IMG/VR virus record: IMGVR_UViG_3300026123_000005
Span: 1-57,282 of that record
DNA length: 57,282 nucleotides
Source: a virus
Taxonomy: Duplodnaviria > Caudoviricetes
Direction: 5' to 3' (one strand)
Part shown: in pieces, positions 11,555 through 40,559 of the stretch
How positions within the stretch are numbered: the stretch's first letter is position 1
Layout of the letters: every line of letters starts with the position of its first letter
Notes under the pieces: model-generated
The model's database searches: none
What the model was told of the DNA's origin: nothing
The model's input: only the letters and a program-made list of their open reading frames with translations
Position numbers and translations under genes: made by a program

Positions 11555-12391
11555 ATGAGTACTAATCCCTTAATAGCGGCTTATAGGAAGCCGGCCCTTT
11601 ATATTTCCTTGCCATCAGGAGGGAGATTTTATAATCCAAAGCCAACACTGAGTATAGACGGTGAATTAGCCATCTATCCAATGACTGCTAGGGATGAGTT
11701 GATAACAAAAACTCCAGATGCTCTATACAATGGCGAAGCGACACGAGCACTAATAAAAAGTTGTTGTCCTGACATACAGGACGCTGACCAAGTTCCGATG
11801 AGCGACCTCATTGTTATTTTGCTTGCTATTCGTACTGCGAGTTACGGAAATGAGTTAGACATAGATGTTAAATGTCCATCATGCCAGAGTATGAATATGC
11901 TCACGGTTGATAGTCCAACAATACTAGCGTCTGCAAAATCTGTCACAGCAGAAACAAGTGTGGAATTAAGCCAAGGGTTCATAGTAGATATCAAGCCATT
12001 TAATCTTCATGACCGTACATTACTTCAACTTCAACAAGTAAAACAACAAAGATTGATTCAATCGTTAATGTCACAATCTAATATGGAAGATGCCGAGAGA
12101 AATGAAATTTTTGGCAAGACTTTTGTTGAGATTGCTGAATTGACAGTTGATTTGGTTGCTAACTGTGTAGCAGGTGTAACTATTCCTGACAGCGAAGTAA
12201 TTACTGACCAAGATATGATTCACGAATGGTTAAAATCTATATCTCGTGAAGATTATGAAAAGATTCGTGACCGAGTAGAAGAATTGGGACAAAGTGGCAT
12301 TAATAATAATATGAAGGCTCGTTGCCAAGAATGCGGACATGAATGGACAACAGAAGTTGAGCTAGATATGTCAAATTTTTTCGCAGGCTGA
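11555..12391 (+). CDS. gp26: Baseplate hub assembly protein / tail chaperone (T4 gp26-like)
   Basis: 'LPSGGRFY', 'PMTARDE', 'LLAIRTASYG', two CxxC pairs (CPSC, CQEC), C-terminal 'NFF'. Confidence 0.8.
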   Translation: MSTNPLIAAYRKPALYISLPSGGRFYNPKPTLSIDGELAIYPMTARDELITKTPDALYNGEATRALIKSCCPDIQDADQVPMSDLIVILLAIRTASYGNELDIDVKCPSCQSMNMLTVDSPTILASAKSVTAETSVELSQGFIVDIKPFNLHDRTLLQLQQVKQQRLIQSLMSQSNMEDAERNEIFGKTFVEIAELTVDLVANCVAGVTIPDSEVITDQDMIHEWLKSISREDYEKIRDRVEELGQSGINNNMKARCQECGHEWTTEVELDMSNFFAG

Positions 12392-12618
12392 TAGCTACAT
12401 GTCGGCCGGAAGAAATAGACGATATAGTTGAAAGATATACAAAGGAACTCAAAAACGCTGAAGCAGGTTATTTAGATATTATTCTACATAGTAACGGAGC
12501 ATTGAGTTATGAGGATATAATGCGAATGCCTGTTAATAGTGTAGCATTATATGTAGAACGTATCAATCTTTTAAACGAAAAACGTGCCGAAGCCGCTAAG
12601 AAAAGTAGAAGACGTTAA
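12361..12618 (+). CDS. gp51-like baseplate assembly ORF without its own start; probable -1 frameshift extension of gp26 (not in the ORF track)
   Basis: Frame open 12361-12618: ...FFRRLIATCRPEEIDDIVERYTKELKNAEAGYLDIILHSNGALSYEDIMRMPVNSVALYVERINLLNEKRAEAAKKSRRR*; 'GALSYEDIMRMP' resembles gp51; first TTG/ATG only at 12502/12520. Confidence 0.7.
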   Translation, partial: ARYVKFFRRLIATCRPEEIDDIVERYTKELKNAEAGYLDIILHSNGALSYEDIMRMPVNSVALYVERINLLNEKRAEAAKKSRRR

Positions 12619-13061
12619 ACGTTACCTGTAATCATTTTATAATACTTCTCGGGCCAGCTATCATAATATCTTGTCTTATGTAGTTGGCCTCTTTTTTCTA
12701 CAATATCATCACGCAACTGTATAAAAACACAGCCAGTGAAGTTTTGAGCAAATAATCCTGATTCTGGCGTACTAATGAAGTATAACAAGTCGGGATGCTC
12801 CTCATGTAACTCTTCAATCACATCATGTACTAAATCCAAATTACGCCCATCTATCCACGCAATTCCTACTTCATACGTATCTTTTTGAAACTGGAGAAAT
12901 ATATCTCTCATGTCACCAGAACGAGCATCTAAGAACTGGAGTTTATTATCAAGTCGTGCTTTTCTCGCATAAGGACATACAGCAAAGCCATCTGCTTTTT
13001 TCGCTTCAATTTTTTCTTCAGACCACTTAAGAAAAGCAGTAGTAAATTCTTCAAAATTCAT
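12615..13061 (-). CDS. Hypothetical protein (CPYA motif)
   Basis: 148-aa ORF, 'VCPYARKA' motif; late-promoter-like ACTAAATA at 13118-13125 on minus. Confidence 0.7.
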   Translation of the reverse strand: MNFEEFTTAFLKWSEEKIEAKKADGFAVCPYARKARLDNKLQFLDARSGDMRDIFLQFQKDTYEVGIAWIDGRNLDLVHDVIEELHEEHPDLLYFISTPESGLFAQNFTGCVFIQLRDDIVEKRGQLHKTRYYDSWPEKYYKMITGNV

Positions 13062-13129
13062 TCATTAGTTCCTAGGGATATTTTAGACACACGGATGCTT
13101 AAAGATTAATGTATCACTATTTAGTCGCA

Positions 13130-13830
13130 GTAAATTGTCCTATCGGACAAAACAACTCGCAATGGCATTGCTTCGTTGTTAATACGCTTACGCTTAAACA
13201 CTCTTTTTATTCCTTTCCACTGATTCTTATATATTCCGTAACATATTTTTGTCACTCCTACATGTGTGTGTCTCTATTCTACCTTAGATACACTTAGCCT
13301 ATGGCGGCCAAAATGTATCTAAGGTAGAATAGAACTCTACCTCTCCCAAAGGAGAAAATACATACGATTAGCAAACCTAACAGTTACGGAAGGGGAGGCG
13401 GTTGGGCTGTACCTCAATTACTTGCTGCTTTTACCAGCGCAGTCCATGTGTTCATAGCGAATCGTACCACATTGAACGGACTCCCGGTTGCAATAGTTCA
13501 TCAGAGCCGGGTCTTTTTTCATTACATTACTGTAACTACTACCATTACGACAATAGAAAAGCGCTAACCAGTAGGGTCGTCTTTTAAGGCATCCTATCAC
13601 GAAGATAGGGTAGTCTATTGAAGCAGATAACTAGAAAACCTGTTAGCTTACCATCTCACATCAGAATGGATTTCGCAACGGAATATATAACTGGCCCGTC
13701 AACCTTGAGTCTAGTTTGTAAGGGTTCTGTGAGTAGTCTTTAACCTTGCCGAGGTGTTCAAGTCTCGCATAACAAGGTGCTAGATAGCCGAGCCATACTG
13801 TTTCACAACAGTAATTTTGCGGAGCTTCTG
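13130..13830. ncRNA. Candidate large structured non-coding RNA or structured DNA element (family unassigned)
   Basis: About 800-nt gap without a credible ORF in a gene-dense genome; at least 8 hairpins, a perfect 20-bp stem (13273-13292/13314-13333) and a 13-bp long-range complement (13227-13239/13678-13690). Confidence 0.55.
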
Positions 13831-13842
13831 TCTTAAAAATTC

Positions 13843-13872
13843 TAGATATTAGTAGATATTAGTAGATATTAG
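13843..13872. repeat. Tandem direct repeat (TAGATATTAG)x3
   Basis: Three exact 10-bp copies immediately after the resolvase stop codon. Confidence 0.9.
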
Positions 13873-13876
13873 TTTT

Positions 13877-14410
13877 TTAGTTTGTGCCGTTTATTGCTAA
13901 GTTTTTTAAATTTTCTATATTGGTTGATATTTGTTTAAAATCTGACCAGAACGTTATAGTCCATGCGCCATACTTTTTTGATTCGTAGATAATATGTCTA
14001 GATGTTAGTAGATGTTGGTTGATATTAGTTGGGAAAGCAAGGTAAATACCCTTGCGATCAAATTTCATGAATAATAAGTCTATATCATTTTCGTCATGCG
14101 CATCAAGTGTTTGTTCCAACCACATTTCTAATACAGGAATGGCCTTATCCTGTAACAGATGATGGAATGGAAAATCCGCATAATTTTTACACTCACAATT
14201 GAAATACTTCCAATCGTCAGGAGGGATGATATCGCCCTTGAATGCTTTAATTTGGTTTTCAGTAAGAGTAGCTTTGCGGGAAGCATTAATACCTCCTACA
14301 AATGCGCCAGAGTGTGGAACCCGTTCAAAGTTGTCATTGTAAATTTCACCTAGAATTTTACAGACTTCTCTTTCAAATCCTTTTCCTTTGTTTTTACTCT
14401 TACTTGCCAT
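13877..14410 (-). CDS. Holliday junction resolvase, PD-(D/E)xK type
   Basis: 'SKNKGKGFERE', 'RVPHSGA', 'GDII', 'ECKNY' motifs; downstream of gp46/47. Confidence 0.8.
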   Translation of the reverse strand: MASKSKNKGKGFEREVCKILGEIYNDNFERVPHSGAFVGGINASRKATLTENQIKAFKGDIIPPDDWKYFNCECKNYADFPFHHLLQDKAIPVLEMWLEQTLDAHDENDIDLLFMKFDRKGIYLAFPTNINQHLLTSRHIIYESKKYGAWTITFWSDFKQISTNIENLKNLAINGTN

Positions 14411-14612
14411 TATCGTTTATTTTTTGTAGTATGTCAATACCTAATTTGCTGGTTTCGACCGAAATCTTTTCATCGTATTCAAATAAATCTGTCTGTGGGT
14501 CCTTTACTTGATATGGATGTGGACTCTCTTCTATATGTTTGGCCAACTGGTAAATGAGTAAATCATTCATTTCCCAGTCAGTCATATCATTATCTTTTTT
14601 ATCAGGCATCAA
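14400..14612 (-). CDS. Hypothetical protein
   Basis: 70-aa ORF overlapping both neighbours in operon fashion; start uncertain. Confidence 0.55.
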   Translation of the reverse strand: MMPDKKDNDMTDWEMNDLLIYQLAKHIEESPHPYQVKDPQTDLFEYDEKISVETSKLGIDILQKINDNGK

Positions 14613-16380
14613 TAACTTCTATCTCAGTATTAAATGTAGTGAAGCCGTTTTCTTTTGTAACCTGTAGAACATTATTAACTCGTCCTACAAGTTCATCACG
14701 GTGTGAAATCAACAGAATATTCTTGTTGCGTTCACGCTCCATCTTTTTGAGAACACCCAATGCGTTCTCAACACCAATACTATCCATACCACTGTCAACC
14801 AATTCGTCAATACAAACGAGATTGATAGGATGATTCATACTTTCAAATACATCACGGAATGCCCAAGACAAACCAAGAATCAAGCGATTACGTTCACCGC
14901 GACTCAGGTTGTCAAAGTCAAGGTCTTGTCCCAACTGAGTGATAGTTACAGAAAGATCACTCTGGAACTGAACCTCATGTGGAAGACCTAGCTTCGTAAT
15001 GTAATGTTCTAGGCGATTGTTCATAAACGCAAGATTCTGTTCAATGATACGTTTACGGACAAAACTGTCTTTGTTCGTTAGCAGTTTATACAAAAAGTTC
15101 TGGTGGTCTTGAATTTCAGTTAGACGATTGACCTCATCCCACGAAATATCTTGTAGACCAGTATCACGAAGACTTTGAATCTGTTCCTCATACGGGTCAG
15201 ATTCTTCAATCTTAGATTCTAGTTGATGTTGTAGAGTAGCCAACTTAGTTTGGTGTTCATATGCCTCTTCAACTGTGTTGTATTCCAGTTTAGGACATTC
15301 ACCTAATTCTCCAAGCGAATCAAGGGCTTCTCTGTACTCAACTAGCAAAGCAGTATCTTCGCTTAACTGTTGCTCACTTTCTGCTACCGCATCTGTCTTG
15401 GTGACTACAATCTTTTCATGTGCTTCGTCATGTAGGTCTTGGCCACATGCGTAACACTTGTGCTCTAGTGTAGCATCCAAGTCTGCTTTGGCTTTTGCCA
15501 AGCGTTTTTCTTCACGTTCAATGACAGTAACAAGTTTCGCAATCTCTGAGTTGAGAGTGTCCATTTGTGTTTTCTTATCATTAAACTCTTTATATAATTT
15601 ATGCGATTTTAGCTCTTCATCTACATTTATGCGTTCTAAATGTACAATTTTGTTAGCTAGCTCATCAATGCTTTCTTGTTTCTTTTTAGCCCAAATCGCC
15701 TGTCGTCTTTCCATATCTTTGATACTTTTATCAATCGCCTCATTGGCAGTTTTAATGCCATCAATGCGATAAGTCTCTTCTTGGATACGGTCTTTAGACT
15801 CTTTGATTAGAGTCTTTAGTAGCTCAGCCTTTTCGGAAAGTTGTGTGATGCCTAGCAGTTGCTCAATAAGAGCACGAGCATCATTTGCTCGCATAGACAA
15901 GAAAGGCTCAGTGTATGTATTTAGTGCCACGATATGCTTGAACATTATGTGGGACATACCTAGTACTTTTTCAATAGCAATCTGTGAAAGTTTACCTTCA
16001 CCTTGCATTTCATCAGTCACACCTTCCATGGAGTCAACACCGCCAACAAGGAACTTAAACACGTTAGGTTTACGTCCTCGTTCAATACGATACTCTACGC
16101 CATCCTTTTCAAAATCTACAGTGACCAGCATTTGTTTGTCATTGGTCTTGTTGATTAGGTTACCAACTTTGATATTGACCAATGCGTTACCGAACAATGC
16201 GTATGACAGAGCATTAACGATTGTTGTTTTGCCAGTACCGTTGCGACTACCATCACCGCCTAGGTCCATATTGTTCCCTAGGACGAGAGTCAGGCCAGCA
16301 GAGTCAAACTCTACGGCCTGTGTCACATTACCTACTGAAAGAAAGTTCTTTACTGTTATGTTCTTTATGTTAAGTGCCAT
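14602..16380 (-). CDS. gp46: Recombination ATPase subunit (gp46/SbcC/Rad50)
   Basis: Walker A 'NGTGKTT', zinc hook 'CYACGQ', signature 'LSRGE', Walker B 'IDE', 'ISHR'. Confidence 0.95.
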   Translation of the reverse strand: MALNIKNITVKNFLSVGNVTQAVEFDSAGLTLVLGNNMDLGGDGSRNGTGKTTIVNALSYALFGNALVNIKVGNLINKTNDKQMLVTVDFEKDGVEYRIERGRKPNVFKFLVGGVDSMEGVTDEMQGEGKLSQIAIEKVLGMSHIMFKHIVALNTYTEPFLSMRANDARALIEQLLGITQLSEKAELLKTLIKESKDRIQEETYRIDGIKTANEAIDKSIKDMERRQAIWAKKKQESIDELANKIVHLERINVDEELKSHKLYKEFNDKKTQMDTLNSEIAKLVTVIEREEKRLAKAKADLDATLEHKCYACGQDLHDEAHEKIVVTKTDAVAESEQQLSEDTALLVEYREALDSLGELGECPKLEYNTVEEAYEHQTKLATLQHQLESKIEESDPYEEQIQSLRDTGLQDISWDEVNRLTEIQDHQNFLYKLLTNKDSFVRKRIIEQNLAFMNNRLEHYITKLGLPHEVQFQSDLSVTITQLGQDLDFDNLSRGERNRLILGLSWAFRDVFESMNHPINLVCIDELVDSGMDSIGVENALGVLKKMERERNKNILLISHRDELVGRVNNVLQVTKENGFTTFNTEIEVIDA

Positions 16381-16413: not shown

Positions 16414-17445
16414 TTATACATGGAGTGTGTTGTATATGTCAATGAGTACTGCGGGTTTTATTGTTTCGCTTTCAATTGCGTTGAGTTGGTTGAGTACAAT
16501 TTGGTCAACACTTTCAACGTGTAAACTTTCGTCCGCGTTCCATTCTTTAGCGTGTTCTTCTTTTTTGCTAGGTACCAACGCAATCTCGCGGAGGTTATAT
16601 TGTTGTTGGAATGTTTCTTTGATGTAGTTAGCTTCTTCATATGTAATAGGGATATCAAGTGAAATACGACAATGTGTTTTTGGACCAAGATATTTGTCTG
16701 GGTCTTCTACCAGTTTGCTAATCTCAATTGTTTTGTAACTAGGTGCATCTGGCCAATTAACAAACTCTGGCTCACCTTCCCATTTAAAGAAAGTAATACC
16801 TCGTTCATCGTCCCACGCATCGGCATAGTTATGTGGAAAACAATTCCCTGTGTATACAACATTGCCTTTTATTTGTCGTTTATGAAAATGACCAGAGAAT
16901 ACTTTGTCTGCTTTACTTAGATGTTCTTCACGAAGTCCACCTCCATGGTCAGGCATTTGTACCATGGCATTCATATAGAAATGTGGTAACTCAAAGTGAC
17001 CAAAAATATACTTCACATTCAATTTAGAAATCTTATGATGTTCATCTTCAACTAACCAAGGACAGATAGCGACATTATCTTTCACAAGAATATCATCATT
17101 GACGATAGTAATATTTGGATAGAGTTTGGCCATAGGCAACGAGTTGATTTCTCGTTTTTCGCGATAGTACAGGTCATGGTTACCCATAATCATATACACT
17201 TCGTCAAATGAGCTATTTAATAGCTCTAATGTTCTCATAGTATAGTTAAGTGTTGAGACATTGATGGTAGCACGGTGGTGATGCCAATCACCTAGGAATA
17301 TCGCCTTTTTGATGTTTCTCTTTTTTGACTCTTCGACCATCCATTTCGTGAAATCGTAACAGTCTTGGTTATGTGCTTTACTGTTATTCTTCATTCCAAA
17401 GTGGATATCAGTCCATATTACGATTTCGTCAAATAGTTGTGCCAA
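16414..17445 (-). CDS. gp47: Recombination nuclease subunit (gp47/SbcD/Mre11)
   Basis: Metallophosphoesterase motifs 'TDIHFG', 'LGDWHH', 'GNHD', 'GHFE', 'SGHFH'; TTG start. Confidence 0.95.
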   Translation of the reverse strand: MAQLFDEIVIWTDIHFGMKNNSKAHNQDCYDFTKWMVEESKKRNIKKAIFLGDWHHHRATINVSTLNYTMRTLELLNSSFDEVYMIMGNHDLYYREKREINSLPMAKLYPNITIVNDDILVKDNVAICPWLVEDEHHKISKLNVKYIFGHFELPHFYMNAMVQMPDHGGGLREEHLSKADKVFSGHFHKRQIKGNVVYTGNCFPHNYADAWDDERGITFFKWEGEPEFVNWPDAPSYKTIEISKLVEDPDKYLGPKTHCRISLDIPITYEEANYIKETFQQQYNLREIALVPSKKEEHAKEWNADESLHVESVDQIVLNQLNAIESETIKPAVLIDIYNTLHV

Positions 17446-17446
17446 C

Positions 17447-18337
17447 TTATTCTTCCTCTTTCTCTTCTGAATCGTCTTTTTTGTTGTTACCGTAAAAATT
17501 ATCTAGTCCTTCACGGTCTTGAATACCTTCCCATTCAGCATTGAATGAGCGTGTGAAACTTGGATCTAGGCCTTGCTCTTCTAGTAGGTCATCACGAATA
17601 TTCTGACTACGTTTCTCTAGATTGAGTACACGAGTAAACGAGTTAGTGATAGCCGCTGTGTAGTAAGCAAATGGATTATCACTCTTAGCTTCGTTAAACT
17701 GGAGACCAATCTGCGTTAGTTGAAGTATAGCTTGTCCTCGCATTTCGTCAACATATGTGTAACCACGCCAGTTGCTACGTTGTGAGTATCGTTCACAAAG
17801 TTTCATGTACATAAATGCTAGGCGTTCATTCGTTCTACCATGTGTAACACTAAACTTGCCATCTGTCAAGTCACCCTTCCAATGACTGCGGGCTACTTCT
17901 GTCCATTCGCCATTAATCATGGCATATTGTTTGAATGGAGGAAAGTTACAGCGACTATGATTATCTGCGGTTGATTTTGGATTAGTTTTGCGTTTTTCTA
18001 ATGGAATGTGGTCAAACGTCATCACACGGACAACAATATCTTCAGTAGAAATAGATTCTGGATCAACAGCGAAATCAGCGGCTTTTGGTTTTGTTTTCTT
18101 GTCTAGCTCACCTCTTTCCCACCGTTTTACTTGCTCTTCATGCGCAAGTCGTTGTAGTCTCTTTGCTTTGTTTTCTTTGGCTTCTGTGATGGTACTATCG
18201 TTGATATCGTCAAGGTGATTGATGATGATATCATACATGTGATATTTTTTATCCATTAGCCAGCAATATGACATTTTACTATTATGGATTTCTTTAAGTA
18301 TTTCTTTGTTAGTTAAGTAGTGTTGTGCTTTAGCCAT
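17447..18337 (-). CDS. gp55: Late transcription sigma factor (T4 gp55-like)
   Basis: 'YLTNKEIL', 'NWRGYTYVDEM', 'FNEAKSDNPFAYYT' motifs; gp55-47-46 synteny. Confidence 0.85.
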   Translation of the reverse strand: MAKAQHYLTNKEILKEIHNSKMSYCWLMDKKYHMYDIIINHLDDINDSTITEAKENKAKRLQRLAHEEQVKRWERGELDKKTKPKAADFAVDPESISTEDIVVRVMTFDHIPLEKRKTNPKSTADNHSRCNFPPFKQYAMINGEWTEVARSHWKGDLTDGKFSVTHGRTNERLAFMYMKLCERYSQRSNWRGYTYVDEMRGQAILQLTQIGLQFNEAKSDNPFAYYTAAITNSFTRVLNLEKRSQNIRDDLLEEQGLDPSFTRSFNAEWEGIQDREGLDNFYGNNKKDDSEEKEEE

Positions 18338-27617: not shown

Positions 27618-30600
27618 ATGTCAGACAAATATAAACCAAACAAAATCACCGAAGAGATGGAGAAAATACGCGCAGGCGCTAAGAAAACAAATTACATAAA
27701 AACATCTTCGTACTTGCCAAAAACATTTGATACTCCTATCAACCGTAAATGGCTAGATAGCACACTTGACCAAATGTTGAGTAAAGGTGATTTGGAAGAT
27801 ATTGACGCATTTATTGGCAAGCGTGACGGTAAGTACAGAAATATTGATGATGTATATCTACCAGAAGTAGCACATGCCGAGCGCAGAACCAATGTACATT
27901 TGTCTCCTGCAATTGTTTCATACAGTGATAATCAGATAGAAAATGTTATTACATATGATGATATTGCTAATACCATAAAAACAAACACTGACAGTTATTC
28001 ACACGGAGCGGCATACGCTACACAGGCATATACATTTGCACCGCCAATAACATATGACAAGTTTGTTAATCCTAGCTCATATGTGTGGGTGCCTGATATG
28101 CCTGTGTTTATCTCTGGGTTAACAACAGTAGATATAGCTCGTGTAGAATCAGGCGCAGAATATTTCTGGGAAGACACAGATGTTTCATTTTATTTACAAA
28201 ACAATCAGCGTATAAGACTATCTAATTATGACGATTGTACTTACATGGTAGCAGGTGTAGGTAAAAAAATCAAGCTAATTAAAATAATGGATGCTCTCGG
28301 TGAGTTTGTATATGATTTTGAAACACCGGGTAGTCCAGTTGCTGTTACTGGTTTATGGGACAATGCTGATTATAATCCACAATTGCCTGATTTGAATGCT
28401 ATTGATGGAATTTCTTTTGGCGAAGCTGCGTGGGATATGGGCAGCATTGTATTGGAATCATACGACAAAGATTACATTGTTATAGACCGAGCGGATGAAG
28501 ATAATACCGCATGGAGCCGTAATAATAACTGGATACACATTGATGCTGTCAAAGAATGGTGTGGAATAATTGGCATAGATTTTGATGAATACATACGTAA
28601 AGAAAGAAAAGCAATACGACCTATTATAGAATTTAATGCTAACATTGTAAAAATTCCACAAGAAAAAGTTCGTATGAACCAAGCACCTTTGTTTAGATTA
28701 AAAGATGCTACTGGCAAATGGCTTGATGAATATCCTGTGAATGATTTTGCTGGTAGTAAAATATTTGGATACGAAGAAGGAACAGGTTTTGTTGATACCG
28801 AGTTAGGCTTCGCACTCTCACGCCGAGATAATGGCGCAAGCGCAGACATAGTATTTAAAAACTATCTACATGTGGAACGATACACTTCTAAAGTAAGAGA
28901 TGTATTAAATTCAAACATAGACAGGAAAGAAATACAAGGTTTATATTTCTTTGAAATTGACGGCGATAACAGAACAAACTATGTTTCTATGGCTCGTCCT
29001 CTGACTGCGTATAAAAAACAACAAATTGAAGTTATTAACGCGGAAGAGCCTGCTATTTTTTACGGTGTTGGCTCGGAAACATGGAAAACATCTCAAGAAT
29101 TTATTATAACTAAAAAAGCAGAAGATGTATGGACAATAACAGAATTATATTCAAATGGTACATATAACGAGATAAAAGATCCAACTCCTTTTCTTAAATT
29201 GGAACCAGACACTGAATATGAATTTCATAACTTGTATGACTCCGCTGCTGTAGTTTTTTATGTTGATGGTGAAACACCGCTATATGCAAATGGTTTTACT
29301 GCTGATTCGTTTTCATATGTAACTCCGAGTAGATACAACACAGTAAACGTGGCACTGGTACATGCCGACCCTTCTATAGGCGTTATCGGCAAAACAATGA
29401 AAATATACAGTGACCGTGATGCCAGCATTCAGAAACATGAAGTTAAAATTAATGGAAATGTACTCCGACCTAGAGAGTATGTTATTCAATCAGACAAAAT
29501 AACTATTCCTGTTGAATTGATTTCTGAAGGAGATATCATAGACTTACAATACGTTGATACAAATAATACAACAGAGACTTCGGAAACTATACCTGAAATT
29601 TTTGAATATAACTCTAATAACAAAACTGTTGATACATTAACTGTCAGTGAAACATTGGACCACTGGGCAGATATTATTCGTCAATCTCCTGAGATAGATG
29701 GACAAATTATAGGCACAAATAATTCACATAGATTGCCGCAGCTTCCACAATACGGCGGCACGATATTAATTCATGACTACAACATATTGCCGCATAGTTT
29801 GACAATAACAACGCCAGATTTCAATATAACTAATGCTTTGATGGAACAAGGCAAAGATTGGTACGCATTTAAAGAACGTGTTAAGAATCAAGCAAGACGA
29901 TTATGGAGCACAAAATCATATAGCTCCGTGAAAGATTTGACTAATGATGTAATTAATCAATATGTTTTGACACGTAGAGGCACAAGCACGTATAAAAATA
30001 GCAACATGTTATTTTTGAATACGACTGACCCTCAAGAATTTATTTTGAGTATTGGACAAACAAATATTACTCTGCGTGAAACAGTCAATAAAGACGAAAA
30101 CATTCAAGACCATTTGTACGTGTATTTAACAAGTTATGTTGCTGGCAATTTGATTGAAAAACTTTTAATCAAGAATACTGATTACACTGTTGTAGCAAAT
30201 CAGCTTGTATTGAATCAATCTATAGTGTCTTCGTTCGGCAATAATGATTCTACGATATCTATTCACTACATTCCGATGGATGAATCATGTTATGTTCCGC
30301 CTAGTATGACAAAATCTATGCTAGGTCCAGTGTATGAACCACAAGTACATAATGGTGTGCTTTACTGTCACGACGGAGACACATATCCAGTAAACACTGA
30401 TGGTGATATTGAAGTTATATTAAATGACACACGAAGCCCTTCGTTTGACCCTATTGCTGCGGTGTTGTATGACATTGAAAAAAGAATATACGCTGGACTT
30501 GTAGATGGTGAATATGTTATACCTGCATCGTTAAGAGGTTCACAGCATCGTTCTAAATGGTACACACATTACGACATTGAAAACGATTTGATGTACCGTC

Positions 30601-33600
30601 ACTTTGTACGATGGACAAATGACACAGGCTATAAACTTCCTGTTTCTATTCCAGATTCAGATGACACGGAAGGTTGGACATGGAACTATAGACATATTAA
30701 TGTAGATGGACACTTGGGCAATTTGCCAGGACACTGGCGCGCGGCTTATCGTACATTGTTTGACACTGACACACCACATCTAACGCCGTGGCATATGTTA
30801 GGACATGCCAAGAAGCCAACCTGGTGGGATGACTTGTATAGTTGGACTGAACCTACGAAACGAAATGCTCTTCTTGATGCGTTAAAACATGGCAGAACAG
30901 ATACGACCGGCAAGACAGATTTGCGTTACGCTCGTTACTACTGGGACTGGATACTACAATGTCCAGTTGATACTAACGGTGAGTTAGTTGGGCCAGTTAA
31001 TGTATTAGTCGCTAATCCAGCAAATAGAGTGTTTGATGTGAATTTTGCACAAGCACACACATTTGAAGATTGGTCAGAAGGACAAATGATTTGGCGTAAC
31101 AGTGCTCTAGGACAAGCGGCGTTTATTAGCACACTGACTACTCTATCTCCTGCACAAGCATGGGCAGAGTTTTTTGTGCCAGGCACAGTTCGCTCAGCAG
31201 ATTATACAACATATCCTGGAATTGTCACTGATGAGCTTGGATTGAATCAATTAACTGATTCAGCGAGAGCCGGAGATTTGACAACGGTTGTTAGTAGAAT
31301 TTCTATGAAGAATGACAGAGTGATACCTAACTCTGAGGTAGTAACAGTTGATGATGCGCAAGTGTTGTTATTCAATAACACTGACGGAGATAATGCCACA
31401 ACTGAATTTGCTCTTCTACCAGAAACAGGAATTGTATCAGGCGTTGCTTTGACTAACCGTGGAACAAAATACAATCAATTACCAGATGTAGATTTCTATA
31501 GCGAAACTGAAGGGAACATTGGATTAAATGTCAGAGTTGAAACTAAAACTGTTGAATATGTTTCTCGTGGATTAGACCAAATCATATATAATTATATAAC
31601 AAAAATTGAATCTACGCAAAGCTTCAGTGAGCAAGTTAAAAATGTAGAAACAAGATTGTCGCAAAAGATTGGTGGATTTTCGGCGAAAAATCTATTAGAA
31701 TTTAAAACGGAAAGTAGTCGTCAAGGTTCTATCGCATTAGCAAGCTTTGATTATGACTTGATTATGTATCAAGGCAAACCTACTGATTTGATAACAGCAT
31801 CATCTTTTAGAATTGTTAAGACGGATTCTGGTTATAGTGTATTTGGATTTAGTCCTAACAAACAACAATTTTATTTTTATGAAGCAGATTTATCATACAC
31901 CAGTAATGTTGAAGTTGTGACAATAGGCGACAGCGGTGCTACTGTTAAGAAATATAAAAAGTTTGTTAAACCAGCAAGTATAGCAGAATACGGTACAAAG
32001 TTCAAGCGTATTCAGGATGTTTATAACTTTATTCGTGGCAATCTTCAATTTGTTAAAGATGCTGGATATGATTTACTTCGTGGAATAGATGACTATGCGT
32101 ATGACTTTGCTCGTTGGGCAATGAGTTCAGCAGTAGATTCGCAATTGACATTGCCAATTGGCTCGGAAATAATGTTCCAACCTGGACATGGTACTATATT
32201 GGAACTAAACTCACTATCCAGACAAACAAACGGTGTCCTTGATACAAACGGCAGAACTATACCGTTGGAAGAATTACTGATAACTCGTGATGAAACACAA
32301 ACTGTTGTCAGTTATGGTGGTGATTTAGGCAGTGTAACATTCGCGGTAACTGATTTTGAACACATGGTTGTGTTCAACAATGTGACTGACTTTAACAGTA
32401 CTATCTATGATGATGTACTTCAGAGAAGACAACCACGATTGATAATGAAAGGTCAAAGAACAAAAGATTGGTACGGTAAGCGCAAAGCGCCAGGATATCT
32501 AATCTTTGATGATAAGATTGTTCAAAACTGGGACACAAGTGTTGATAACATTAGAGACTATTACGATGTTAATACTAATAAATTTAATGCGTCTATTGAA
32601 AAAGCAGAGCGCTTGACTAATGGCAATATAACACAAGAATGGATTGAAGATTTGGGAATATCTCAGATTACAGCCAACGAAATGTACAAAGGTATTATCC
32701 GTGATAAAGGTACAACTAACTCATTGACATTTGCTGATACATTGGCATCCTACGAGGTAGGTGATAAAAATGTCAAGTCTCGTGAAATATGGATGTTCCG
32801 TGAGAACATGTTCGGTGATGTTAGAAACTTTGATGCCACTGAGTTTGAGATTAGACGAACAGAAATAAAAGACAAACAACAGTTGTTAAACTTTGTTGAC
32901 CAGCCGACTGGCACAGGTGTAGATATTGTAACAAATAGTATTTTGGCACCTAATCGTCCAAGATATGTTAATGGTTCAAAACCTGATTTTGAATTAGTAC
33001 CATTTGTTGAGCGTGATTTGCAATTAAGAACAGCAGGTGATTTATTAGTAGATGAGGCTGACTTTGTTGCGAAGAAGGTTAGTGATATACCAGGATTGTT
33101 CAGTCAAATGTCTGGCACAGATATAGAAACATGGAACACATACACAAGTTACAAAAAAGGCGACCTTGTTCGCAAAGATGGAAAACTGTATGAATGTATA
33201 GTACAAGCAACTGGATTAAACGCACAAACTGATATTGCTCAAATTGCGAGTGCTGTAAGATATCCTACTATGCCATATGGTTCAACTGCCATTTTTAGAG
33301 ATAATACAGATTCATCTTATACTACCGTAACATTCGGTACAAATGTATCCGGTACAGAACCTATTTCTATATTAGGCAGTATAACAAATCCTGTGGTGTT
33401 AAGTCAAGATGGAGCAAGACTGATAATTAACAACTCTGTCATTTCTATGGAAAAGAAAATACAGGTACCACAAGATTCTGAATATCCTGTCACACCGGCA
33501 GGAGCAATATCGCCTGTTATCGCCGATACATTTACAGAAAGATACTTAACTATAAATGATATTACCGTTGATTTAGCCGAGGCAGACGCGCCTGTCATTG

Positions 33601-36600
33601 GTGACGAATTAGCATATGCTGATGGTGAAAAAACAGTATTCGCATTGAATACTGCTTTGGGTGATTACGGTAGCACACCTTTTGAAATTGTTGTGAATGA
33701 AGTGACTGTAGATGGCACGCCATTGGTACAGAATGTTGATTATACAGTGAATGTTGGCACAAACAGTGTTACTTTTGCCACTGCCCCTGGCATACCTAAT
33801 AATGGATATGCACAAGAAGGCTATGTCCAAGAATTTTATGCGGATGAAGGTTATTCTGATGTTGTATTTAAATTCAAACCTATTAATACAAAAAATTACA
33901 CTGAAATAAAAGACAGAATAGAAAATACTGTTCCTAATGTGTTTGTATTTTTAGACCCTGACAACAGATTTAAAATTCGTGGCACCGTGCCGGGTTCTTC
34001 ACAAGAGCTTGTTATTGGTGCTGGAAGTGCTAATGGAGCATTGGGACTCACAGCAGGTACATATACAGGTGGCACAACATTAGTGTATGTACATACTGAA
34101 ATTGAGTTGCCTGAGATAATCACACGAATTAATGACCAAGTAGGACAAACAGTTATCGCTTCTGAATCAGCCGGTAGACTGTTGTTATCAACTAACGAAT
34201 CACAGGTGACTATAGGCGGAACACAGTCTATATTGGACGATATAGGAATTATTGCCCAGACGTTTAATGCTGTTGAAACAAATATTGACTCATTTAGTCC
34301 TGTGGGAGATATCGTTAGTAAGATGAATGCCGCATTTTCTGACAGTGGAATAGAAATAACCGCTGCTGAAATAGATGGGTATTTGGCAATAACCAGTTCC
34401 ACAGAATATTTAGAAATTGGTTCAGACGAATTTCTAAATAATATGGGTATATCTGCCACAGATGTAAATGATAATGGCGATAATATAACGATTGTAAGTT
34501 CTTTGTCGGATGTTATATCTAATGATTTTGTCATTAGCGAGTGGAAAGATGTATCACATGAAGACCCGTTGCTGTCAAGCATATGGGTGACAGACGATTC
34601 TGAATTTGAATATAGTACCTTGAATTCAACGACACAAGTACGATACAATAGCTGGAACTTCTACAAATTTATGAATTTAAATTTCTATAGTGATTCTCCA
34701 GACTCGTGTTCTATTTGTGCGGGTAATACTACGAGTGATGGCAATGATGCTCAAATCACGATTAATACAGCACATAATCTGAGAGCTGGTGATTACGTAA
34801 TGATTGTGAATTCTACTACTATTCCTAGTGTAGATGGTATACATAAAGTCACTCGTGTAGATGCGCTTGACCCTAGAGCTTTTTACATTGATATGTACAT
34901 TGATGAATGTGGTGTAAGTCCTTCTATATTTGTTATGCGTAGTAGCAGATTCAGAGAACACGATTATGTTGTGGATACCTCACTATACAACTACCAATTG
35001 GATGATTTGGTATTTGTCACCCCAGTTGGCCAAGATTCAATACAAACTGGAACATATGTGTATGGTATGGAAACACCTGACACAGGTAACACAGTGACGC
35101 GATTGAATTCTCAGCCTGTGCGTATAACCGAAACTCGCTCAACAAATGATGATATTATGAATGTTTCGTTGTATAATGGCAAATCAGCAAGGTCATCGTT
35201 TGAGCTAGAAGTATTTGACCCATTGCGAGGTAAAATACCAGGCGTAGCAGACAGAGAAATAGATATCAAATCTCCTATAGATTTGGCTGTGTATACAAAC
35301 AGTACTGATATTTCTTTTGAAGGTACACCTAGGTCGGCATGGGGTGAAGAGCAAATTGGCACGGTGTGGTGGGATACGAGTGCTGCTATCTACTTTGATT
35401 ATACACAAGGTAGTGGCGAATACAATGCCAATATGTGGGGCAAACAGTTTTATTTCTCGAGCATTGACATATACGAATGGGTAGTGAGTGATGTACCGCC
35501 TGACGAATGGGAAAAAGCCGCTGAGAAAAATAAGGAAGTTATAGGCAAAGTGGCATCTGGCGAAGCATATAAAGTTTATGATCCGGCGTTAAAAGAAGAT
35601 GTGTACTATTACACCGAAAGTACTGAATGGAATCATATTACAGCGCAATACGACAATGTTTATTACTTCTGGGTTAAAAATAAACAAACCATAGAAGACC
35701 CTAAACGACACTTGACAGCAAACCAAATAGCGAGCATAATAGATAATCCAACGGCTAATGGTATCTCCTGGTGCGCGGCAGTTTCAGACAATCAGTTAAT
35801 TTTAGCCAACGTGAAAGCGTATGTAAATAATGATAACACTGTGGTACAAATAAATCGCATGTTAGAAGGACACGCACATACTAGTTGGAGAGAAATTGCA
35901 GAAGATGTTGATACTATTCCGCAGTTCTGGTATGAAGGATTACGAGACAATCTTTCTGGATACGAAATAGAAGATAGACCAGAAGAAACAATATCAACAA
36001 GTGAAACTGAATGGCAACCTGGCCAGCAATATGTAATAGGAAACAAAGTATTCTATAATAGAACAGAGTACATTTGTATCAAAGACGTTGATGTGACTGA
36101 TGCGTGGGAAATACAAACTCTTAAACGTTGCTGGATAAAAAGAGATCCATTTGTCAGAAGAAATAGATTGCCTGATATCAATTTGCACGAATTTAACAAA
36201 TACGGAAACGACCGTGAATTGTATCAATCATGGTTTGTTGATGTGAATGAGGCAAGAAGAGAATTCGTATCGGTTCTCAATAGATTAATCAAGACAATCA
36301 ATGTTGTTGATGAAGTTTCTCCTGGTAATATTGTTAAGTTTGAGCGATTTGGATTCTTGTGGAAATGGATTGATTATGTTAGTCCTGCCCGTGTTCCAGA
36401 ACAATCACATACTCTTGTAGTATCTCGTATGGCTGCGTTGGATGACGTAGACACAACACGCCATACTCTTGTTAAGGTTCCAGAATTCAATCCAATAGAT
36501 GGCAGAGATATATCTGAGCTACATCAATGGACAGGTACTGAGTGGAATCTAGTAGAGAAGAAAAATTCTACAATGGAATTTAATGACCTACTATGGGATA

Positions 36601-37601
36601 AATCATCTAAAAACGCTTGGGATATGTCGGCATGGGATGAATATTCGTGGGATATAGATTATTCATACGATATTCATACGTTGATTGAATTGCTGCGAAA
36701 TGATGTATTTGTGGGTACATATTTGCCTTACTTTAATCAGTTGTGGTTCGCAATGATAAATTATGTATTATCAGAGCAAGACTTTGTTGACTGGGCATAC
36801 AAAACAACATTCATTCAGTTGGATGTTTCTGAGAAAATACTAACTGATGTTAGACTATATCGCAGAGATACAACAAATGAGATTTTGGGTTACATAAACT
36901 CAGTCAAGCCTTTCCATACAAAGATACGAAATGTTAAGCGTAAATACACTGTAGATGAAACTGTGGCTCTAGATATATTTGATAGTGCTATGCTTGATAT
37001 ACAGATAAGTCATCATCCTGACGATTTGACAATAGAATATATTGGCACAGAAATTGACGGTGGCTCGTTCACAGAAACATTGGCAGACGAATATGTTGCT
37101 GCTACATTCACTGAATCAGAAAGTGTAGTTGAAGATATTTTAGATGGCGAAGATTTTATTCAGCCTTACAATTACAACTGGACAGGTGAAGAAGCTAGAC
37201 GTTTGGAGTTAATATTGTCATTACAAGAGTCATTAGCAATTGAGGTAGAGACTGAAAATTCTGGACAAATAGACAAATTTGTTAGTGTAACAGATTATAG
37301 TGGTAATACGCATAGATATGAGCTACTGTCTGAAAATACAGTGACGATAGACCAAGATTTGCTTCACACTGATACATCGTGCGAAATTAGTACTATTGCT
37401 GATCATCCACGATATGGTCTAGCGTACATTAACGGTGAGATAGTATATTATTCACAGTTAATAAACTCTAAAATGGTTAATATGGTTCGTGGAGTATTAG
37501 GAACTACTCCTAAATCACATACGCTTGGGTCGGAGTTGGTATTCTTGGAAGCTGGTCCAACGTACAAAGTTAGCCAAACAATAGCTGTGACTAGCCCATG
37601 A
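27618..37601 (+). CDS. Very large virion structural protein (3327 aa; gp7-position baseplate wedge)
   Basis: Uninterrupted ORF after gp6; 'YINSVKPFHTKIR' C-terminal motif; two CBM5/12-like W-x5-Y-x2-G motifs. Confidence 0.7.
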   Translation: MSDKYKPNKITEEMEKIRAGAKKTNYIKTSSYLPKTFDTPINRKWLDSTLDQMLSKGDLEDIDAFIGKRDGKYRNIDDVYLPEVAHAERRTNVHLSPAIVSYSDNQIENVITYDDIANTIKTNTDSYSHGAAYATQAYTFAPPITYDKFVNPSSYVWVPDMPVFISGLTTVDIARVESGAEYFWEDTDVSFYLQNNQRIRLSNYDDCTYMVAGVGKKIKLIKIMDALGEFVYDFETPGSPVAVTGLWDNADYNPQLPDLNAIDGISFGEAAWDMGSIVLESYDKDYIVIDRADEDNTAWSRNNNWIHIDAVKEWCGIIGIDFDEYIRKERKAIRPIIEFNANIVKIPQEKVRMNQAPLFRLKDATGKWLDEYPVNDFAGSKIFGYEEGTGFVDTELGFALSRRDNGASADIVFKNYLHVERYTSKVRDVLNSNIDRKEIQGLYFFEIDGDNRTNYVSMARPLTAYKKQQIEVINAEEPAIFYGVGSETWKTSQEFIITKKAEDVWTITELYSNGTYNEIKDPTPFLKLEPDTEYEFHNLYDSAAVVFYVDGETPLYANGFTADSFSYVTPSRYNTVNVALVHADPSIGVIGKTMKIYSDRDASIQKHEVKINGNVLRPREYVIQSDKITIPVELISEGDIIDLQYVDTNNTTETSETIPEIFEYNSNNKTVDTLTVSETLDHWADIIRQSPEIDGQIIGTNNSHRLPQLPQYGGTILIHDYNILPHSLTITTPDFNITNALMEQGKDWYAFKERVKNQARRLWSTKSYSSVKDLTNDVINQYVLTRRGTSTYKNSNMLFLNTTDPQEFILSIGQTNITLRETVNKDENIQDHLYVYLTSYVAGNLIEKLLIKNTDYTVVANQLVLNQSIVSSFGNNDSTISIHYIPMDESCYVPPSMTKSMLGPVYEPQVHNGVLYCHDGDTYPVNTDGDIEVILNDTRSPSFDPIAAVLYDIEKRIYAGLVDGEYVIPASLRGSQHRSKWYTHYDIENDLMYRHFVRWTNDTGYKLPVSIPDSDDTEGWTWNYRHINVDGHLGNLPGHWRAAYRTLFDTDTPHLTPWHMLGHAKKPTWWDDLYSWTEPTKRNALLDALKHGRTDTTGKTDLRYARYYWDWILQCPVDTNGELVGPVNVLVANPANRVFDVNFAQAHTFEDWSEGQMIWRNSALGQAAFISTLTTLSPAQAWAEFFVPGTVRSADYTTYPGIVTDELGLNQLTDSARAGDLTTVVSRISMKNDRVIPNSEVVTVDDAQVLLFNNTDGDNATTEFALLPETGIVSGVALTNRGTKYNQLPDVDFYSETEGNIGLNVRVETKTVEYVSRGLDQIIYNYITKIESTQSFSEQVKNVETRLSQKIGGFSAKNLLEFKTESSRQGSIALASFDYDLIMYQGKPTDLITASSFRIVKTDSGYSVFGFSPNKQQFYFYEADLSYTSNVEVVTIGDSGATVKKYKKFVKPASIAEYGTKFKRIQDVYNFIRGNLQFVKDAGYDLLRGIDDYAYDFARWAMSSAVDSQLTLPIGSEIMFQPGHGTILELNSLSRQTNGVLDTNGRTIPLEELLITRDETQTVVSYGGDLGSVTFAVTDFEHMVVFNNVTDFNSTIYDDVLQRRQPRLIMKGQRTKDWYGKRKAPGYLIFDDKIVQNWDTSVDNIRDYYDVNTNKFNASIEKAERLTNGNITQEWIEDLGISQITANEMYKGIIRDKGTTNSLTFADTLASYEVGDKNVKSREIWMFRENMFGDVRNFDATEFEIRRTEIKDKQQLLNFVDQPTGTGVDIVTNSILAPNRPRYVNGSKPDFELVPFVERDLQLRTAGDLLVDEADFVAKKVSDIPGLFSQMSGTDIETWNTYTSYKKGDLVRKDGKLYECIVQATGLNAQTDIAQIASAVRYPTMPYGSTAIFRDNTDSSYTTVTFGTNVSGTEPISILGSITNPVVLSQDGARLIINNSVISMEKKIQVPQDSEYPVTPAGAISPVIADTFTERYLTINDITVDLAEADAPVIGDELAYADGEKTVFALNTALGDYGSTPFEIVVNEVTVDGTPLVQNVDYTVNVGTNSVTFATAPGIPNNGYAQEGYVQEFYADEGYSDVVFKFKPINTKNYTEIKDRIENTVPNVFVFLDPDNRFKIRGTVPGSSQELVIGAGSANGALGLTAGTYTGGTTLVYVHTEIELPEIITRINDQVGQTVIASESAGRLLLSTNESQVTIGGTQSILDDIGIIAQTFNAVETNIDSFSPVGDIVSKMNAAFSDSGIEITAAEIDGYLAITSSTEYLEIGSDEFLNNMGISATDVNDNGDNITIVSSLSDVISNDFVISEWKDVSHEDPLLSSIWVTDDSEFEYSTLNSTTQVRYNSWNFYKFMNLNFYSDSPDSCSICAGNTTSDGNDAQITINTAHNLRAGDYVMIVNSTTIPSVDGIHKVTRVDALDPRAFYIDMYIDECGVSPSIFVMRSSRFREHDYVVDTSLYNYQLDDLVFVTPVGQDSIQTGTYVYGMETPDTGNTVTRLNSQPVRITETRSTNDDIMNVSLYNGKSARSSFELEVFDPLRGKIPGVADREIDIKSPIDLAVYTNSTDISFEGTPRSAWGEEQIGTVWWDTSAAIYFDYTQGSGEYNANMWGKQFYFSSIDIYEWVVSDVPPDEWEKAAEKNKEVIGKVASGEAYKVYDPALKEDVYYYTESTEWNHITAQYDNVYYFWVKNKQTIEDPKRHLTANQIASIIDNPTANGISWCAAVSDNQLILANVKAYVNNDNTVVQINRMLEGHAHTSWREIAEDVDTIPQFWYEGLRDNLSGYEIEDRPEETISTSETEWQPGQQYVIGNKVFYNRTEYICIKDVDVTDAWEIQTLKRCWIKRDPFVRRNRLPDINLHEFNKYGNDRELYQSWFVDVNEARREFVSVLNRLIKTINVVDEVSPGNIVKFERFGFLWKWIDYVSPARVPEQSHTLVVSRMAALDDVDTTRHTLVKVPEFNPIDGRDISELHQWTGTEWNLVEKKNSTMEFNDLLWDKSSKNAWDMSAWDEYSWDIDYSYDIHTLIELLRNDVFVGTYLPYFNQLWFAMINYVLSEQDFVDWAYKTTFIQLDVSEKILTDVRLYRRDTTNEILGYINSVKPFHTKIRNVKRKYTVDETVALDIFDSAMLDIQISHHPDDLTIEYIGTEIDGGSFTETLADEYVAATFTESESVVEDILDGEDFIQPYNYNWTGEEARRLELILSLQESLAIEVETENSGQIDKFVSVTDYSGNTHRYELLSENTVTIDQDLLHTDTSCEISTIADHPRYGLAYINGEIVYYSQLINSKMVNMVRGVLGTTPKSHTLGSELVFLEAGPTYKVSQTIAVTSP

Positions 37602-40199: not shown

Positions 40200-40559
40200 A
40201 TGGCAATAACATTACGAAGCACAAAAGGAAGCGAATTAACATACGCTGAAGTTGACGCTAACTTCACAACTTTAGAAAATGACTTAACTATAACTAACAC
40301 GTTGCTCGGTGTGACACAAACTGATTTAGCTACGTTAGAAGGTGATGTAACTGCATTAGACGGAAGATTAACAACAGCAGAAGCGAGCATTACCACAGTC
40401 CAAGCTGACTTGATCGCAGCAGAGGCTACTATTGTTGCATTACAAGCTGACTTAGCTGCGGCAGAGGCTACTATTGTTACATTACAAGCTGACTTGGCCG
40501 CGGCCGAAGCGGCAATAACAGCACTAGATGCTCGTGTCACAGCATTAGAAACACCATAA
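40200..40559 (+). CDS. Short coiled-coil fibre-like protein
   Basis: 'ITLRSTKGSELTYAEVDANF' fibre attachment-type N-terminus followed by heptad repeats. Confidence 0.7.
   Translation: MAITLRSTKGSELTYAEVDANFTTLENDLTITNTLLGVTQTDLATLEGDVTALDGRLTTAEASITTVQADLIAAEATIVALQADLAAAEATIVTLQADLAAAEAAITALDARVTALETP
40401..40510 (+). repeat. 42-bp (14-aa) tandem repeat, about 2.6 copies
   Basis: caagctgactt at 40401, 40443 and 40485 encoding QADL.AAEATIV.L. Confidence 0.85.

Follow-up and report, generated by a model that had tools for sequence, protein, structure and literature searches.

An uncatalogued family of large structured RNAs from marine T4-like phages

The DNA considered here is a viral record of 57,282 nt (IMG/VR record IMGVR_UViG_3300026123_000005; CheckV completeness 16%), which was analysed over its full length and is called the window throughout. 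It is the DNA of a T4-like phage. Its minus strand carries genes for a late sigma factor, for recombination proteins and for a small endonuclease-like protein (PDDEXK_15), followed by an open reading frame (ORF) of 148 aa named p148, upon which a gp51-like baseplate gene converges from the plus strand. Between the PDDEXK_15 gene and p148 there is a gap of 815 nt (13062-13876), the window's largest stretch without an ORF of at least 100 aa. The longest frames in it with an ATG, GTG or TTG start have 62, 61 and 60 aa, and the equivalent gaps of relatives share no common ORF. An earlier note, made from the letters of the window, had singled out this place as an ORF-less gap of about 800 nt and proposed that it holds an ornate non-coding RNA of about 700 nt. 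Both the gap and the RNA were borne out: at about 13270-13724 the minus strand specifies a large RNA that belongs to an uncatalogued family, and the syntenic intervals of relatives are conserved with strong covariation. The size was too generous, with the conserved RNA accounting for about 450 nt (13270-13724) and the remainder made up of a repeat array, a 5' extension, a spacer and twin hairpins (Table 1).

The evidence for a fold comes from comparison of the relatives. Helices were first picked by a scan of all column pairs for stacked covariation and were then written on a fresh alignment of the 3' domain, A2, consisting of 31 representatives less than 93% identical to one another, chosen from 59 distinct sequences after removal of duplicates. 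In A2, 90.8% of 1664 cells pair, compared with 75.5% in shuffled alignments (the real figure was attained in 0 of 500) and with 35-42% once the pairing is slid by one to three columns. Changes on both sides are found in 39 of the 57 pairs, there are 280 double-change cells where shuffling gives 83, and the covariation score of 0.470 stands against at most 0.095 for the slid versions. RNAalifold, which does not consider pseudoknots, independently recovers H7, H7i, H5, H6, He and H3 with 40 pairs, 26 of which are doubly changed. The strand, which the earlier note had left unresolved while taking some G-U pairs to favour plus, can now be assigned. Since cells with G-U far outnumber those with A-C (199 vs 38 in A2), the fold reads on the minus strand, and the leaning towards plus is not upheld; standard pairs make up 90.8% of cells when read on minus vs 81.1% on plus. 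In keeping with a non-coding sequence, gap runs in the alignment have lengths of 1, 0 and 2 modulo 3 in 320, 52 and 51 cases, a tally of sequences and not of events. That a real RNA structure is under selection on the minus strand is, in our judgement, nearly certain.

Folding of the single sequence was suggestive, but alone it neither proves a structure nor picks a strand. The whole 815 nt gave z scores of -5.46 on plus and -3.01 on minus (20 shuffles), and the 457 nt of 13268-13724 gave -3.65 on minus and -3.92 on plus (100 shuffles). As had been expected of a structured RNA, the energy was better than that of every shuffle, on both strands, and the strands were not separated. The G+C content is 0.44-0.46 at 13300-13600 vs 0.29-0.39 alongside. 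These z scores of -3 to -5.5 are modest and alike on both strands, which is what one would look for if the gap had no function and held chance stems, decayed coding sequence or a small-protein gene. Such an explanation can scarcely be upheld against the covariation, the strand-specific G-U pairs, the conservation in more than 100 contigs and the absence of a common ORF.

The RNA could not be placed in any catalogued family. The 4227 models of Rfam 15 include GOLLD, ROOL, OLE, HEARO, RNase P, transfer-messenger RNA (tmRNA), group I and II introns, GIR1 and riboswitches, and at gathering thresholds none of them matched anywhere in the whole window or in any of 17 related loci. With E up to 10, the window region drew 15 chance-level matches, the best of 25.7 bits against a threshold of 65; these were microRNA-precursor models on the long hairpin H3 and weak small nucleolar RNA and cis-regulatory models. 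At the same setting the relative L005 matched solely the T-box, with 12 bits vs a threshold of 93. ARAGORN found 0 transfer RNA (tRNA) or tmRNA genes in the whole window. These results are in line with the earlier failure to match the RNA to tRNA, tmRNA, RNase P or group I/II introns.

Table 1. Features of the locus, listed in the direction of the minus strand
Feature	Position	Strand	Remarks
Late sigma factor, gp55-like	17447-18337	minus	
Mre11-like phosphoesterase	16414-17445	minus	gp47 side of the recombination genes
Rad50/SbcC-like ATPase	14602-16380	minus	gp46-like
70-aa ORF	between the Rad50/SbcC-like ATPase and PDDEXK_15 genes	minus	
PDDEXK_15 endonuclease-like gene	13877-14410	minus	upstream neighbour of the RNA; Pfam PF24608, E 2.5e-25; PHROG 244
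Tandem repeat array	13843-13873	minus	10-nt unit x3.1, CTAATATCTA on minus; TRF, 100% matches
Window-specific 5' extension	13725-13842	minus	about 115 nt; two hairpins (13743-13778, about 13796-13813); no counterpart in relatives
5' domain, type A	13519-13724	minus	alignment A3, 10 sequences (window and nine others)
A-P1	13710-13716/13629-13635	minus	
A-P1a	13696-13701/13676-13681	minus	
A-P1b	13666-13669/13651-13654	minus	
A-P2	13614-13620/13551-13557	minus	
A-P2a	13604-13609/13593-13598	minus	92% paired
A-P2b	13581-13585/13557-13561	minus	weak
Conserved 3' domain	13280-13518	minus	about 230 nt; R1 match 144.7 bits, E 1.4e-34
H7	13507-13511/13483-13487	minus	with inner H7i; H7 97% paired
H5 outer	13478-13482/13441-13445	minus	97% paired
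H5 inner	13474-13477/13450-13453	minus	96% paired
H1, pseudoknot helix	13457-13466 with 13363-13372	minus	H5 loop with strand 3' of He
H6	13412-13416/13394-13398	minus	near-invariant 13-nt loop 13399-13411
He	about 13389-13393/13376-13380	minus	only about 3 pairs in window
Variable hairpin	between He and H3	minus	
H3, terminal long hairpin	13273-13333	minus	87.1% paired; 7 of 15 pairs changed on both sides
Spacer	13184-13272	minus	between H3 and twin hairpins
Twin hairpins	13133-13183	minus	
Twin hairpin 1	13151-13180	minus	two-tier stem; G/A-rich internal loop
Twin hairpin 2	13135-13150	minus	GAUA loop
p148 (148-aa ORF)	12615-13061	minus	downstream neighbour of the RNA; PHROG 10325, unknown function
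Baseplate gp51-like gene	11555-12391	plus	converges on p148

The 3' domain is common to all relatives. From its 5' end it consists of H7, H5 with one strand of H1 in its loop, a short helix, H6, He, the variable hairpin and H3. H1 occupies 11 columns of A2, of which 91.3% of cells are paired and 9 pairs are changed on both sides. Because H1 crosses H5, and H5 is itself supported, the core is pseudoknotted. Where precisely H1 stops is uncertain, since RNAalifold prefers a small hairpin of 3 pairs that competes with the three pairs at the 3' end of H1. In H3, the inner 13-16 bp or so are conserved while the outermost pairs are specific to the window, and a G-U pair at A2 columns 232/246 is conserved in 25 of 31 sequences. 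Three other candidates in this part of the RNA were set aside. The short helix, Hc, is uncertain, having 2 counted pairs, 0 double changes and a different register in RNAalifold; a long-range helix of 7 pairs from the 5' domain to CUGCGUU is mostly G-U and fails in type A sequences; and a GGAGG in H6 that resembles a Shine-Dalgarno sequence covaries as an ordinary stem.

The 5' domain exists in at least two unrelated-looking forms, A and B. The window has type A, for which alignment A3 gave 93.0% of cells paired, compared with 81.4% after shuffling and 34-55% when slid, with 14 of the 34 pairs doubly changed. A hammerhead-like CUGAUG in a type A loop was considered and dropped, as it is not conserved. 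Most relatives have type B, which is built of different covarying helices. By eye, most type B domains also hold a compact H-type pseudoknot, GUCA..GGUU..UGAC.AACC (for example at about 4630-4670 of L005), which is deleted in L024, L050, L051, L069, L075 and L081.

Upstream of the 5' domain, the window differs from its relatives in an extension, whose stems were read directly from the window sequence and which separates the repeat array from the conserved RNA. Arrays of CTAAYAY-type units are found 5' of the RNA in relatives of every subfamily; these were seen in the alignments, the window's being the only measured period. Over the window as a whole the word CTAATAT is not enriched (18 matches vs 15.6 expected). 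The array may be one of promoters or one of protein-binding sites.

Downstream of H3 comes the spacer, followed by the twin hairpins. Judged by eye, the spacer looks A+T-rich in several of the relatives shown and holds ATAAATA there, a word resembling the phage's late promoter; the window's own spacer has no exact copy of the T4 late-promoter word TATAAATA. Hairpin 1 is 94% and 91% paired in its two tiers, with 10 of 11 pairs doubly changed, in a MAFFT alignment where the window's row is out of register. Hairpin 2 is only 64% paired there because of register slips, and the printed rows appear by eye to carry it. In some subfamilies the tetraloop of hairpin 1 is replaced by a conserved loop of about 20 nt (GAAUGAGUG.AACGAAUGA), as in L102 (1305-1377), L033, L036 and L177 (2690-2745).

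Of the nine stems that the earlier note had drawn in the gap, six correspond to helices counted on the alignments of relatives: 13273-13333 is H3, 13441-13482 is H5, 13483-13511 is H7, 13593-13609 is A-P2a, and 13151-13180 and 13135-13150 are twin hairpins 1 and 2. The stem at 13342-13355 falls in the region of the variable hairpin, outside the helix counts, and those at 13743-13778 and about 13796-13813 belong to the 5' extension and have no counterpart in relatives. H1, H6, A-P1 and A-P2 had been overlooked.

Relatives were gathered from the proteins on either side of the gap. A search with the PDDEXK protein led to 37 viral loci, and in 22 of the 37 the homologues of PDDEXK and p148 flank a gap of 470-700 nt; the gaps of these 22 have patches of DNA in common with the window. 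An alignment of p148 added 80 further loci. An nhmmer profile of the core matched 96 of the 117 loci, in each case on the same strand as p148 (minus in the window). A covariance model, R1 (227 positions, 47 pairs), was then used with a threshold of E up to 0.001 and matched 78 of 97 sources; divergent loci score 35.8 bits (L035) and 31 bits (L028, which is cut by the end of the contig). There is one R1 copy in the window and one, on the plus strand, in each of three large records. Two other large records, G001 and G002, have zero matches at this threshold, and their loci (L036 and L037) score 17.9 bits in cmsearch.

A pattern of 20 bases from the H6 region was found in 58 viral stretches and in 3 stretches of bacterial metagenome-assembled genomes. 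R1 confirms 29 of 29 viral pattern contigs tested and 0 of the 3 bacterial matches, which are treated as chance for that reason; the pattern covers only part of the RNA family, and the bacterial zero applies to that pattern. Thus far the family is confined to viral contigs, comprising more than 100 related fragments of marine giant phages, and the length of its members is estimated at about 430-560 nt. Completeness estimates for contigs of 57, 221 and 342 kb are 16%, 60% and 92%, and host genomes of about 350-370 kb are suggested, belonging to marine T4-like phages.

The order of genes around the RNA is fixed in outline, the module always standing between the gp46/47 recombination genes and baseplate gp51. 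The 29 new contigs have, as far as each reaches, gp46, a SegE-like GIY-YIG endonuclease, the RNA, p148 and the convergent gp51. The GIY-YIG gene lies upstream of the RNA in all 29 and in three loci scanned with Pfam; it encodes about 150 aa (for example L047 556-1029 and L057 358-825). In 22 loci the upstream gene is PDDEXK, and the window has PDDEXK in the GIY-YIG position. The RNA always adjoins a small gene of endonuclease type from one of two unrelated families, either upstream or, in subfamilies C and D, downstream. These may be homing genes parked at a very conserved target, or alternative resolvases that close the recombination operon.

Such neighbours bring to mind a mobile ribozyme, and the RNA could be what is left of a self-splicing or capping ribozyme, or such a ribozyme in free-standing form, moving together with a GIY-YIG or PD-(D/E)XK endonuclease gene. 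Group I introns commonly carry endonuclease genes, and pseudoknotted cores such as the one found here are typical of these ribozymes, so that group I introns and GIR1 resemble the RNA in having a pseudoknotted core next to an endonuclease gene of this kind. The resemblance does not extend to the details. No split exons are seen, as gp46, the endonuclease and p148 are complete and the flanking ORFs are unrelated; the ORFs abut, so that a 5' intron half would not fit in the interval from gp46 to the endonuclease gene, which itself lies outside the fold. The Rfam models for group I (RF00028), group II and GIR1 give no match at E up to 10, and the order of strands (5' of H5, 5' of H1, 3' of H5, three hairpins, 3' of H1) differs from the P3-P7 order of group I. 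One segment of the window resembles an R element, a likeness that is given no weight here. An intron-like or mobile-ribozyme relic is thus very improbable.

Not all relatives keep the same gene downstream. In subfamilies C and D (L029-L034 and L036-L039), gp51 and PDDEXK are separated by about 900-1000 nt without an ORF. By eye, this gap holds the repeats, helices in the same order with a compensated H1 among them, the spacer and both twin hairpins, and here the module precedes PDDEXK. R1 gives only low scores there (17.9, 8.8 and 7.6 bits, at a matching relative position), and for this reason these modules are regarded as probable homologues only. In L177, the RNA and the twin hairpins are followed by the convergent gp51 with no p148 in between. 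Conversely, in L082, L086, L097 and L099, p148 comes directly after another gene, with no gap and no R1 match; this gene is of ATP-grasp type in L082 and Asp/Arg-hydroxylase-like in L086.

This arrangement bears on whether the RNA acts on its neighbour. Together with the twin hairpins it could be a long structured 5' untranslated region (UTR) or processing element serving the translation, stability or maturation of the next ORF. Nearly all loci have an ORF immediately downstream of the module and in the same orientation, and the twin hairpins stop only tens of nt short of the start of that ORF, with no terminator-like site between. However, the ORF is not constant, being p148 in the window, PDDEXK in subfamilies C and D, and none in L177, and there are loci with p148 that lack the RNA. 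A late-promoter-like ATAAATA stands between the RNA and the hairpins in several of the relatives shown. With about 450 nt, a pseudoknot and an exchangeable 5' domain, the RNA is far above the usual size of leaders such as riboswitches and T-boxes, and the sole leader among its Rfam matches is the T-box already mentioned, at 12 bits vs 93. A cis-acting leader is therefore considered unlikely, if worth keeping in mind.

The repeats and the spacer raise another explanation, already named as an alternative in the earlier note's heading (a structured origin), in which the locus is a replication origin with a structured primer or R-loop RNA. Models for such origins are ColE1 RNA II, oriF and oriG of T4, and the primary origin of T7. 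Here the repeats would be iterons or tandem promoters, the folded transcript would control formation of the hybrid, and the spacer would be the unwinding element. Like ColE1 RNA II and oriF/oriG, the locus would yield a structured transcript, about 0.5 kb long, with repeats or promoters on its upstream side and, in some relatives, an A+T-rich-looking spacer after it. The array of three 10-nt units 5' of the RNA has similar counterparts in all subfamilies, each matching record has a single copy, and its position is fixed at the border between the replication and recombination genes and the late structural genes. On the other hand, selection is for a strand-specific, pseudoknotted fold with invariant loops, for which an origin has no need; the RNA is more elaborate and more conserved than those origins are known to require, and T4-type origins are not known to have RNA structure of this sort. 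The window's own spacer is not markedly A+T-rich, and no initiator gene was identified. An origin is accordingly a rather doubtful account of the locus.

We lean, by a modest degree, towards an autonomous and trans-acting ornate RNA. This reading is favoured because the flanking elements stay with the module even where the neighbouring genes differ, and because its size, invariant loops and modular periphery resemble ornate RNAs and ribozymes more than leaders. On this view, transcripts would begin within the conserved CTAAYAY repeat array or immediately beyond it, and either H3 or the twin hairpins would mark their end. Once folded, the RNA would act in trans during infection, as a protein scaffold, an RNA-only assembly or a ribozyme, and would leave the neighbouring gene unregulated. 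Its working site would be made up of those nucleotides of the 3' domain that are unpaired and invariant, whereas the exchangeable 5' domain would be peripheral.

Several points weigh against an autonomous RNA. The transcript itself, like its two ends, is a prediction from sequence. A simple scan found no terminator-like site in 12300-14700, and promoter-like sites in this interval number 7 vs 7.9 in shuffles, which is no excess. Because the RNA is co-directional with both flanking ORFs wherever the two are present, it could be a 3' or 5' UTR of a longer transcript, and a sigma-70-like site (11/12) at 14437-14409 might serve PDDEXK and the RNA jointly. Catalysis, a protein partner and a target in trans are conjectural. 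The homology of the C and D modules consists of weak R1 scores and a resemblance by eye. The shuffle control on A2 ignores relatedness; the slid control is the sounder of the two because it retains it.

More speculatively, the autonomous RNA may stand for a hitherto undescribed class of functional RNAs of very large marine phages, either a ribozyme or a self-assembling or protein-scaffolding ornate RNA. In that event its gene would be so well conserved that free-standing homing endonucleases of the two unrelated families might have settled beside it as they do near tRNA and rRNA genes, with the 3' core as the active part and the 5' domains as modules of specificity or assembly. We hold this out as a tentative idea.

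Among known non-coding RNAs, only a handful are large, elaborately folded and still without an assigned function. The RNA described here, with more than 400 nt, many covarying helices, no coding capacity and conservation across many genomes, has the properties of the loose class of large ornate non-coding RNAs of phages and bacteria, and we class it as a new family within that loose kind, that of the large ornate phage RNAs. Like GOLLD, ROOL and OLE, it has hundreds of nt, many covarying helices, pseudoknotting and conserved unpaired nucleotides; it was likewise found by comparative genomics with its function open, and it is phage-borne, as GOLLD and ROOL often are. It differs from all three in having no match in Rfam 15, in its marine T4-like hosts with large genomes, in its fixed neighbourhood (gp46, endonuclease, RNA, gp51) and in its exchangeable 5' domain. 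Moreover, GOLLD and ROOL are often near tRNAs, while the window has no tRNA genes.

The addition of such an RNA in a new setting, marine T4-like phages with large genomes, matters in several ways. The covariation is clean, the core is pseudoknotted, and the modular nature of the 5' domains gives a clue to the construction of the fold; the alignment and covariance model are ready for curation in the manner of Rfam. The 3' domain of about 230 nt is a defined target for probing, ribozyme assays and cryo-electron microscopy, a method by which three large, elaborately folded non-coding RNAs were recently reported to form homo-oligomeric complexes (PMC12286853). The fixed place by recombination genes and homing-type endonucleases offers a lead on the role of phage RNAs of this size.

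Full-text literature searches found no description of this RNA. Candidate structured RNAs have been reported from the same data source, IMG/VR, on the same kind of covariation evidence in viral intergenic regions (Fremin, Bhatt and Kyrpides, 2023; PMC10690425). As the models of that study span 29-151 nt, they could hold single hairpins and not the whole RNA, and fragments of it may already be listed there, unnamed. In PMC12619734, the words 'non-coding', 'noncoding' and 'intergenic' have 0 occurrences each.

Turning to the neighbouring genes, the gp46-like protein finds its nearest relatives among cultured phages only in distant ones with large genomes, with identities of no more than 50.7%; the matches are Sinorhizobium phage Phosso, Pseudomonas phage PA5oct and Agrobacterium phage Atu_ph07. 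Against the collection of phage records, blastn with window 12600-14450 and tblastn with p148 gave zero matches, and no cultured phage with the locus was found there. The p148 protein has no Pfam family and no significant fold match in the PDB (best E 0.12; predicted model with pLDDT 76). Its nearest Atlas clusters are unnamed viral ones, one of which bears the label T4-like GC 824.

The T4 late-promoter word TATAAATA occurs 30-51 nt ahead of four ORF starts (4659, 11503, 18462 and 52571), and the ORFs that it precedes include gp51 and a virion protein. These sites are consistent with late promoters of T4 type that are read by the gp55-like sigma factor (17447-18337). The sigma-70-like match at 14437-14409 (minus) consists of TTGACA, 17 nt and GATAAT, and its second hexamer ends at the ATG listed for the PDDEXK ORF. 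The true start of PDDEXK may be downstream of this ATG, since several relatives align only from residue 7 or 9. The site may be an early promoter that drives PDDEXK and perhaps the RNA too. Within the 3' part of the PDDEXK reading frame, at 14001-14031, there is a degenerate 10-nt repeat (x3.1, 80% matches) that resembles the array at 13843-13873. Elsewhere in the window, the structural block has a single plus-strand ORF of 3327 aa (27618-37601), and a 42-nt tandem repeat of 2.5 copies with 87% matches lies within a reading frame at 40401-40504.

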